Positions 27,954-28,745 of a stretch of 64,000 nt of DNA are shown here, one piece after another. The stretch's first letter is position 1, and every line of letters begins with the position of its first letter. Both the position numbers and the translations under genes were made by a program. The notes below the pieces were generated by a model, which had not been told where the DNA came from, did not search any database, and saw nothing but the letters and a program-made list of their open reading frames with translations. The stretch is from NCBI GenBank assembly GCA_036400935.1, contig DASWWW010000001.1, forward strand, positions 46,096-110,095, written 5' to 3'. This DNA is from Minisyncoccota bacterium. Lineage in GTDB: Bacteria; Patescibacteriota; Minisyncoccia; Phycocordibacterales; UBA6065.

Positions 27954-28745
27954 ATGCGAAACCTCATAAAAATAGCCTTCGTAGCCCTCTCGCTCGTTCT
28001 CTTGCTCAAGACGGGAGACGCGATGGCCGCATCGTCCTGCAACTCCACATACTGCCGCGTTGAGCCGAGCGATACTCTTACTATCGATGCTCACGGTACT
28101 TGTTATGACATTTCCAACTATCCTCCGAACATCCCGATCTACGTCCCGATAAAGACAAGCGCGGAGTGGGCGAATTTCTACAATCACCTGCCGTCTAACG
28201 TAACGAAGGATTCGTGCGATCCTGGATATTCGGAGGGTGAGTACTATTCGGAGGGAACATACGGTCCTGCTTACTCAGAGGGATATTATCCGCCAGCATA
28301 TTCCGAGGGGTACTATCCTCCTTCGTATTCTGAAGGCTACTATCCTCCAGCTTACTCCGAAGGTTACTACCCTCCGACATACTCGGAAGGCTACTACCCG
28401 CCAGTGTATTCAGAAGGGTACTATCCGCCGGTCTATTCTGAAGGTTATTATCCACCAGTGTACTCGGAAGGCTACTATCCTCCGGTTTACTCCGAGGGCT
28501 ATTACCCTCCGACGTATTCCGAGGGTTACTACCCTCCGGTATATTCTGAGTCCGGCTATTACTCACAGGGCGGCTATTATTCGGAAAGCTCGTACGACGA
28601 AGGGACTTGCGACCCTCTCCAGGGCCCTGGATCCTATTCTTGTGAATGCACTGAAATCTGCGATGTGTATTCTGAATTGAATACAAATCCAGATGCGCTT
28701 TGCGATTGCGGAGGGGCAACTTGCGTTTTAACTTGTGGCGAATAA
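27954..28745 (+). CDS. secreted Cys-flanked protein built from 13 tandem YSEGYYPP(A/S/T/V) nonapeptide repeats
   Basis: Signal peptide; Cys-rich N- and C-terminal caps (SSCNSTYCRVE...; GTCDPLQGPGSYSCECTEICDV...CDCGGATCVLTCGE); perfect amino-acid repeats. Confidence 0.65.
   Translation: MRNLIKIAFVALSLVLLLKTGDAMAASSCNSTYCRVEPSDTLTIDAHGTCYDISNYPPNIPIYVPIKTSAEWANFYNHLPSNVTKDSCDPGYSEGEYYSEGTYGPAYSEGYYPPAYSEGYYPPSYSEGYYPPAYSEGYYPPTYSEGYYPPVYSEGYYPPVYSEGYYPPVYSEGYYPPVYSEGYYPPTYSEGYYPPVYSESGYYSQGGYYSESSYDEGTCDPLQGPGSYSCECTEICDVYSELNTNPDALCDCGGATCVLTCGE
28227..28570 (+). repeat. 27-bp coding tandem repeat (x13) with synonymous-site divergence between units
   Basis: Units such as tactcggaaggctactatcctccagct / tattcagaagggtactatccgccggtc encode the identical peptide with different codons. 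Confidence 0.85.

Follow-up and report, generated by a model that had tools for sequence, protein, structure and literature searches.

A Tyr-rich tandem-repeat protein in a hypervariable cassette of a Paceibacterota genome is a candidate variable surface protein

The gene at positions 27954–28745 of the forward strand of a 64,000-nucleotide stretch of DNA (hereafter the window; positions 46,096 to 110,095 of contig DASWWW010000001.1, assembly GCA_036400935.1) encodes a Tyr-repeat protein of 263 amino acids (P0001; NCBI VGE35_00395), as given by its open reading frame (ORF), its translation and exact matches in NCBI and Logan. The source of VGE35_00395 is a Candidatus Paceibacterota metagenome-assembled genome (MAG), a name that is placed under the phylum Minisyncoccota. 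Attachment to other cells is the way of life of bacteria of the Candidate Phyla Radiation (CPR, Patescibacteria), whose surface proteins are almost entirely uncharacterised. With slightly less than even confidence, P0001 is read here as a Sec-exported, disulfide-stabilised three-part surface protein of a CPR bacterium of the Paceibacterota, with a length-constrained and possibly O-glycosylated spacer that belongs to a block-swapped cassette. The constant N-terminal domain (N-domain) would dock P0001 on the cell surface or on a partner, and the ~130-aa acidic segment rich in Tyr, Pro, Gly and Ser would most likely form an extended, non-globular spacer, constrained in length, from which a small distal 8-Cys module projects. 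The spacer and the C-terminal module would be swapped between near-identical strains as a block, together with two or three small genes and a PMT_2-type glycosyltransferase of the GT-C class; the unit sequence would thereby change wholly between orthologues while length, composition and a 4-residue Tyr spacing persist. A GT2 glycosyltransferase, a LAB_N protein and the GT-C enzyme would build a lipid-linked sugar and, on the outer side of the membrane, attach it to Ser/Thr (or Tyr) residues of the spacer, and the repeat of each allele would co-vary with its own transferase.

The protein clearly appears to be secreted and tripartite. As read from the sequence, the ORF starts with a Sec-type signal peptide (aa 1–25, 27954–28028, +), which bears out the secretion proposed in a first-pass annotation of this DNA. 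The signal peptide consists of the n-region MRNLIK, a hydrophobic core and AMA-A, with the probable cleavage site between AMA and A, and AlphaFold2 (AF2) places a helix at aa 3–18 within it. A lipoprotein signal, considered in view of a conserved AASSC, was rejected: charged residues lie between the hydrophobic core and the Cys, and this Cys is missing in most family members. The signal peptide is followed by the conserved N-domain (aa 26–91, 28029–28226, +), which contains 4 Cys and is the constant part of the protein. The Tyr-rich low-complexity centre (aa 92–217, ~130 aa) is composed of 31% Tyr and 14% Asp/Glu, contains YPP motifs and has no Lys, Arg or His; the motif SPPPP is absent from this segment. 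It starts with degenerate leading units YSEGEYYSEGTYGPA (aa 92–106, ~1.7 units, 28227–28271, +), continues with ten perfect YSEGYYPPx units of 27 nt apiece (aa 107–196, 28272–28541, +), recognised by Tandem Repeats Finder (TRF) and codon comparison, and ends with degenerate trailing units YSESGYYSQGGYYSESSYDEG (aa 197–217, ~2.3 units, 28542–28604, +). The array had been described as 13 perfect units; it is real, but only ten units are perfect and the rest are degenerate flanks. The C-terminal 8-Cys module TCDPLQGPGSYSCEC...DPDALCDCGGATCVLTCGE (aa 218–263, 28605–28742, +) is common to the relatives P0006 and P0007, and in the target it ends in GGATCVLTCGE without an LPXTG motif. Cys-rich caps therefore do flank the repeat core on both sides, with 4 Cys at the N-terminus and 8 at the C-terminus, although the total is 12 rather than the 10 counted before. 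Neither the whole protein nor its domains match any family in Pfam, PHROGs or NCBIfam, and P0006, P0007 and P0010 are likewise without a match in NCBIfam.

Each unit of the array is held by purifying selection. The ninth residue x reads A, S, A, T, V, V, V, V, T and V in units 1 to 10, and the other eight positions are fixed. Over the eight fixed codons of the ten units, all 16 first and second codon positions are invariant and all eight third positions vary, so that the variable columns of the 27-nt unit alignment are 3, 6, 9, 12, 15, 18, 21, 24 and 25–27 only. Not one non-synonymous change is seen in 80 codons (dN ~0) against saturated synonymous sites, in full agreement with the strong selection on the repeat peptide, and with the synonymous divergence of the DNA units behind a peptide perfect at 8/9 positions, that the first-pass annotation had pointed out. 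A dS-type comparison between units, which it had suggested, gave a p-distance of 0.71 at four-fold sites, corresponding to a Jukes-Cantor distance (K4) of ~2.1; this is saturation and fits a long time since duplication. The array is old: its synonymous sites are saturated, it holds no recent block duplications, and its units have long remained unhomogenised. The array thus provides a natural example of a tandem repeat in which purifying selection has long acted on each residue and the codons are fully randomised.

The codons of the units are as different from each other as chance would make them. TRF reports a period of 27, 9.6 copies and 75% nucleotide matches. The mean between-unit codon identity is 0.386, and random synonymous draws average 0.413±0.034 for codon usage taken from the window and 0.374±0.025 for uniform usage; an identity no higher than the observed one has a probability of 0.25 if codons follow genome usage and of 0.75 if usage is uniform. 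Because the codon identity equals that of a random draw, the synonymous sites are saturated without any excess of scrambling. Selection against slippage-prone DNA, which had been raised as a second cause of the divergence, was tested as codon over-dispersion and found no positive evidence: the scrambling is not above random, neighbouring units are no more different than far-apart ones, and the longest exact DNA repeat in the array is 17 nt where 18.5 is expected. Ser in the units is always encoded by TCN, which fits single-step drift (P = 0.08, not significant alone). A higher-order DNA period (54, 81 or 108 nt in TRF) was also rejected, since third-position identity plotted by unit distance has no consistent peak and the exact repeats do not exceed 17 nt.

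The chance that faulty assembly or annotation produced the array, or that a decaying gene merely carries it as functionless junk, is negligible. Other frames across the repeat are also open, as expected of stop-free repeats, but those at 28237–28680 (+) and 28195–28719 (−) are by-products of such a repeat. The exact P0001 protein is present on 7 contigs from 7 samples, and a Logan contig agrees with the window with 0 mismatches across 6.8 kb. Because P0001 is identical in 7 independent assemblies, an assembly artefact, which had been named as a possible refutation, is excluded, and the identity in 7 samples indicates that the copy number is stable. The restriction of the variation to the third positions of one frame fixes the reading frame, and because the longest exact repeat is only 17 nt, the assembly k-mers are unique. 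In addition, orthologues retain the signal peptide as well as the domains on either side of the array.

The N-domain defines a large family. A word-indexed search gave four relatives, and the same kind of search with a 40-sequence N-domain alignment gave only 2 short proteins; an exhaustive N-domain profile search was the informative one and returned 218 representative clusters. Among GTDB species representatives, 21 pattern matches were obtained and 0 were confirmed. The consensus of the domain is Y.V..G.T..IDEWG.C..VTN.S...IFVPTKTSAEW.SF..NLPSGVT...C (~60–65 aa; P0006–P0153). In all 218 clusters the domain is located directly after the signal peptide, and its fusion partners include LVIVD, FG-GAP, Kelch, RCC1 with Lcl_C, TSP1, FISUMP and Cys-rich arrays. 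Because the N-domain heads more than 200 different secreted proteins, we infer that it may serve as a docking handle to the cell surface or to a partner. It has no Pfam or NCBIfam model and no fold match in PDB or BFVD, and would thus be a widespread, previously undescribed module without a known fold.

AF2 models the N-domain alone as a beta-rich structure with a predicted local distance difference test (pLDDT) score of 92, which is a confident model; in the full-length model the score of the same domain is 70–86. In contrast, aa 91–217 of the full-length model reach only 31–38 and adopt no secondary structure, which is weak negative evidence because the alignment held 7 sequences, and the confidence for the C-terminal 8-Cys module is low as well. 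The polyproline-II or beta-solenoid fold that structure prediction had been expected to probe is not predicted with confidence from this shallow alignment. The repeat model is compatible with an extended or disordered segment.

The central segment differs completely in its unit among the closest relatives, which have the N-domain and a Tyr-rich centre in common. The unit is SGYESGYTPPQ in P0002, GTYTDTYTPVT in P0003, GYTGAYTVES in P0004, TGSYEPTY in P0006 and YGQSGYYS in P0010; P0007 has mixed units, mostly YExx tetrads (YESTYESEYE...) with a Pro-rich stretch (YPPTE, YPPAE), and a paralogue on contig L007 has (YESx)n. Yet segment length and composition are evidently conserved across the family as far as its sequences reveal. 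In eight members the segment is 96–141 aa long (129–141 aa in seven of the eight), is composed of 17–38% Tyr, 5–35% Asp/Glu and 17–41% Ser/Thr with no Lys, Arg or His and scarcely any aliphatic residues, and has a dominant Tyr spacing of 4. Non-conservation of the repeat among homologues had been named as grounds for dismissing it: the unit sequence is indeed not conserved, but length, acidity, Tyr periodicity and the lack of basic and hydrophobic residues are. The peptide-identical units of the relatives are also synonymously varied, yet they keep exact block duplications of 26–74 nt, unlike the target (17 nt). The C-terminal Cys module of P0006 and P0007 is that of the target, and P0002/P0004 and P0003 carry different modules. 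The target octapeptide was found in only one other cluster, an unrelated Cys-rich secreted protein (P0005/P0156; SRR3989344, SRR3989338), in which at least 7 perfect PGYSEGYYPP units form an inter-domain linker. A degenerate DNA pattern for EGYYPPxYSEG gave 0 matches in genome, metagenome and viral contigs, indicating that the motif is very rare. As a separate observation, two assemblies of the YGQSGYY(S/G) allele (a P0010-like gene; L012 and L013) both give a length of 291 aa and differ in the order of the S and G variants between units, which corresponds to small-scale shuffling with unchanged length.

The cassette that begins with the repeat is clearly hypervariable when aligned between strains. 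Contigs L001 and L006 (both GCA_013565675.1) and L002 (GCA_013565735.1), which come from related metagenome assemblies, were compared. The flanks of L001, L002 and L006 are 92–97% identical at the DNA level on both sides. Their alignment breaks off near codon 123 of the Tyr-repeat gene, at the very start of the repeats, and resumes ~3 kb later, before the GT2 gene; the break points are at ~4190 in L001, ~4353 in L002 and ~737 to 3720 in L006, and the equivalent in the window is 28227–32769. The variable island ends past the GT-C gene and one further small gene. Inside it, the ~165-aa protein is 27% and the GT-C protein 36% identical between strains and the next small protein is unalignable, as opposed to 97% for the flanking GT2. 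The GC content of the window cassette is 0.48–0.50 versus 0.54–0.56 in the flanks. L007, from one Paceibacterota MAG, contains two tandem paralogous cassettes (2506–5876 and 6961–10830), each coding for an N-domain/Tyr-repeat protein, another of ~170 aa and a PMT_2 GT-C. A pure (YESx)n tetrapeptide array of ~30 units is present in one of the two, and this 286-aa (YESx)n protein is also present in an independent Joint Genome Institute (JGI) assembly (L014/L015). In L016 and L017, the slot of the target is occupied by N-domain proteins that carry Cys-rich/TSP1-like payloads and measure 808 and 627 aa; here too a GT-C gene follows. Exchange of whole alleles, rather than evolution in place, would reconcile an old and conserved array with a complete turnover of units between orthologues. 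A hypervariable cassette with such sharp borders would point to a molecule that faces hosts or phages.

The enzyme at the end of the cassette is a 490-aa polytopic GT-C-type (PMT_2/ArnT-like) homologue (30489–31961, +), as judged by homologue comparison. The start of its ORF at 30261 (GTG) is over-extended, and the real start is near 30489. The protein is 44% identical over 495 aa to that of L007 9388–10830, which has the same cassette position, and it scores 2.7e-14 against the GT-C-like Agl23 model, which is sub-threshold. Three of the five syntenic GT-C homologues match PMT_2 (best E 4.7e-10) and one of the five matches PMT; the L017 orthologue has matches to both. A WIDEG motif (D37/E38) is invariant in these homologues, and their profile has no match among PDB sequences. 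The 44% identity to this PMT_2-matching group and the Agl23 score together argue that the window protein is of the GT-C/PMT_2 type. The GT39 (PMT/ArnT-like) module reported 2 kb downstream thus stands as a linked enzyme, probably of GT-C/PMT_2 type, whereas its assignment to GT39 specifically is not established by a direct PMT match.

Two genes on the opposite strand complete a putative glycosylation set. The GT2 glycosyltransferase (243 aa, 32837–33568, −; Pfam Glycos_transf_2, 4.4e-28) is of the polyprenyl-phosphate-sugar synthase type, and its best NCBIfam similarities are to ArnC (2.1e-20) and PpgS (4.3e-14) and also to DPM-like proteins, all below the equivalog cut-offs. The small membrane protein LAB_N (98 aa, 32548–32844, −; Pfam, 1.7e-18) is a candidate partner in the handling of lipid-linked sugars; its gene product is 65% identical to the LAB_N protein of L007 and occupies the same position in L017. 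GT2, LAB_N and GT-C are all conserved in L007 and L017. This gene linkage suggests that the spacer may be the acceptor of the linked glycosylation system, and the locus offers an enzyme and a substrate as a candidate pair through which CPR bacteria may glycosylate proteins. With regard to the surrounding DNA, a strong hairpin lies at the 3' end of the LAB_N gene (32532–32559), and a 244-aa ORF (32035–32769, +) overlaps this gene by ~220 nt; it is probably shorter, as its L007 homologue has 155 aa.

A more far-reaching proposal, which we regard as unlikely, is that the Tyr-rich units are allele-specific acceptor motifs of the co-inherited GT-C, possibly for Tyr O-glycosylation. The cassettes would then be matched enzyme-substrate pairs whose swaps give a new coat to a conserved appendage on the surface of these episymbiotic CPR bacteria and alter recognition by hosts or phages, and the octapeptide of P0156 would be a portable glycosylation tag. 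A literature search showed that tyrosine O-glycosylation has been described for surface proteins of Paenibacillus alvei.

Several observations weigh against the reading of P0001 as a surface protein with a glycosylated spacer. Localisation, glycosylation and N-domain docking are all inferred. The GT-C copy of the window itself has no Pfam PMT or PMT_2 match, and a strong terminator-like hairpin with an 11-bp stem and a T-run (30403–30430, +) is located between the repeat operon and the GT-C gene. In L016 and L017, a PMT-type GT-C gene also follows N-domain proteins without Tyr repeats, and for the Tyr-repeat gene of L013 no GT-C is detectable; the enzyme may therefore act on another substrate. 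The low AF2 confidence obtained with the 7-sequence alignment is not proof of disorder. Because short-read assembly recovers only arrays with dissimilar units, the family-wide codon scrambling is in part an ascertainment effect. Finally, there are two hints of a more specific role: a mere spacer would not obviously need eight of eight residues fixed in ten of ten units, and the same octapeptide occurs in the unrelated P0005/P0156 protein.

These two hints are also what speaks for a self-associating or ligand-binding low-complexity module, in which multivalent Tyr, Gly and Ser motifs would make proteins cohere, for example in reversible cross-beta or condensate-like assemblies such as those of eukaryotic [G/S]Y[G/S] domains, for adhesion to a host cell or a surface matrix. 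Fixation of the octapeptide in spite of synonymous saturation is stricter than a spacer needs, and its occurrence at least 7 times in an unrelated secreted protein, the 17–38% Tyr with no charge-neutralising basic residues, and the binding-type modules on other members of the N-domain family would all suit such a function. The YGQSGYYS units of P0010 presumably resemble the SYGQ repeats of FUS/EWS. However, this FUS-type likeness is compositional only, the unit sequence is not conserved between orthologues, and a strongly acidic segment disfavours self-association without counter-ions. We therefore hold this explanation to be doubtful.

The first-pass annotation compared the repeats to adhesive or cross-linkable structural proteins. 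A cross-linked or adhesive fibre or glue would convert Tyr to 3,4-dihydroxyphenylalanine (DOPA) or to dityrosine or isodityrosine, as in mussel foot proteins, extensins, resilin and Tyr-rich spore-coat proteins. The 31% Tyr and the YPP motifs of the central segment are suggestive of this chemistry, a small cupredoxin-like gene (37977–38366), which misses the Pfam cut-off with E 4.5e-4, forms a conserved part of the locus, and a superoxide dismutase (SOD)-like gene with an N-terminal extension is found 32 kb away. Nevertheless, the cupredoxin match is weak, and single-domain cupredoxins are electron carriers, not oxidases. Among the ~60 window ORFs scanned, no tyrosinase, laccase/multicopper oxidase, haem peroxidase or prolyl hydroxylase was found. 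Mussel foot protein 1, with its (AKPSYPPTYK)n repeat, and the plant extensins and proline-rich proteins (PRPs) are basic, Lys-rich and eukaryotic, and need tyrosinase, prolyl hydroxylase or peroxidase. The target resembles them as a secreted protein with Tyr-rich tandem 5–10-mers that contain a PP motif, but it is acidic, has no Lys, Arg or His, has no such enzyme encoded nearby and has no sequence homology to them. The acidic repeat chemistry and the missing partner enzyme make the adhesive or cross-linked structural protein an improbable explanation.

Perfect tandem cores also look like those of multi-core precursors, and each YSEGYYPPx unit might be released and modified as a ribosomally synthesised and post-translationally modified peptide (RiPP). 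Fungal ustiloxin-type precursors likewise have a signal peptide. However, the units abut directly with no protease sites or spacers between them, the array is flanked by folded, disulfide-bearing domains, the units of the relatives are as short as 4 aa, and no radical-SAM, YcaO, P450, BURP or DUF3328-type enzyme was found among the ORFs of the locus that were scanned. A RiPP-like precursor is accordingly very improbable.

The spacer reading finds its closest counterpart in the staphylococcal SD-repeat proteins (Clf/Sdr/Fbl), which share with the target a secreted surface protein with an acidic low-complexity repeat stalk between functional parts and a near-invariant peptide whose DNA units differ mostly at synonymous sites. 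SD stalks also have transferases of their own that glycosylate them. The target unit is a Tyr/Pro-rich 9-mer and not Ser-Asp, the target has neither an LPXTG sorting signal nor a hydrophobic tail (its C-terminus is ...VLTCGE), and its linked transferase is an extracytoplasmic GT-C enzyme rather than the cytoplasmic SdgA/SdgB. Furthermore, its copy number is apparently fixed in 7 samples instead of being highly polymorphic, and its host belongs to the CPR. The R-domain of Fbl consists of 54 distinct 18-bp units, mainly DSDSDA, with a dN/dS of 0.045, and the length of the SD-repeat stalk matters for display (PMC6533592). The repeat principle is thus already known from the peptide-perfect, synonymously variable stalks of Gram-positive adhesins.

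The cassette as a whole recalls the pilin alleles of Pseudomonas aeruginosa. Group IV PilA and TfpW are an example of a variable surface protein that is co-inherited with a GT-C enzyme (bioRxiv 10.1101/2020.04.19.049825, 10.1101/150227). In both systems a conserved N-terminal part is joined to a variable rest that is swapped with an adjacent, allele-specific GT-C, and type IV pilus genes are nearby, PilB being located 10 kb downstream of the target. Unlike a pilin, the target has neither a type IV pilin class III signal (G, the cleavage site, then F/M-T-L-x-E) nor a hydrophobic N-terminal alpha-helix, but a Sec signal and a beta-rich N-domain instead, and there is no sign that it is a member of a pilus. 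The enzymes of the locus compare with three-component systems such as CsbB/GtcA/YfhO, ArnC/ArnEF/ArnT and Ppm1/Pmt, in that an ArnC-like GT2, a LAB_N protein and a PMT_2-like GT-C are present; LAB_N is not an established flippase, however, and the GT-C of the window has diverged too far for a direct PMT_2 match. The GT2/flippase/GT-C logic of extracytoplasmic glycosylation is outlined in PMC5836110. A literature search on Tyr-rich proteins or Peptidase_S74 in Patescibacteria found nothing.

The target is embedded in a tightly spaced, co-oriented run of genes for secreted and membrane proteins between NusA and a PilB-type ATPase, and this overall arrangement recurs in L002, L007, L013, L016 and L017. 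Several Paceibacterota lineages share the order NusA ... S74 fibre-like protein, N-domain protein, GT-C, LAB_N, GT2, DsbA ... PilB. The locus, with its uncharacterised protein family, stands as a good candidate for encoding a variable CPR surface structure. Upstream of the target, three co-oriented and syntenic genes for secreted or membrane proteins of 733, 330 and 97 aa (23754–27319, +) have no family match. The secreted 733-aa (23754–25955) and 330-aa (26027–27019) proteins contain repeated motifs of the type (F/Y)AWSSNIGWI(S/Q)F; nothing was found for either in Pfam, PHROGs or NCBIfam, and their genes are kept upstream of the S74 gene in all related loci. This gene encodes a 187-aa secreted protein with a Peptidase_S74 domain, the intramolecular chaperone of tail fibres and endosialidases (27374–27937, +; Pfam, 2.3e-15), and matches PHROG tail-fibre families down to 3.4e-36. 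It is always located directly upstream of the N-domain gene or one gene away, with synteny in L001, L002, L007, L013 and L017. An origin from a prophage or tail fibre was rejected, as housekeeping genes (NusA, pyrophosphatase, trigger factor, ClpP) flank the locus and nothing in it apart from the S74 domain resembles phage.

Downstream of the target, the first cassette gene encodes a 164-aa N-terminally anchored protein (28758–29252, +), homologues of which follow every Tyr-repeat gene. Two small cassette genes (29304–30376, +) come next, one for a 170-aa secreted protein and one for a weakly PDZ-like protein of 156 aa (29906–30376); the ORF at 29867–30475 (−) is apparently spurious. Beyond the cassette, a paralogous pair of ~400- and ~340-aa proteins without a family match (34067–35281 and 35260–36288, +) lies between GT2 and DsbA/PilB, as it does in L002, L007 and L013. 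The DsbA said to be ~10 kb away is indeed present as a syntenic thiol-disulfide oxidoreductase gene 9.7 kb downstream (38416–39129, −; Pfam Thioredoxin_4 3.2e-21, DSBA 7.6e-15), and the conserved, syntenic locus ends with the PilB-type T2SSE/MshEN ATPase (39174–40910, +; Pfam, 9.6e-111).

Other features of the window are more distant from the target. The SOD gene 32 kb away (60762–61667, −) encodes a homologue of Fe/Mn superoxide dismutase that is extended by ~110 aa at its N-terminus, and together with a MauE-family membrane protein (48157–48669, −) it could relate to extracytoplasmic redox chemistry. Four genes for TrmB-type helix-turn-helix regulators are found within 12 kb (7437–8225, 8276–9058, 13961–14995 and 18975–19736), which is an unusual density for a small CPR genome.

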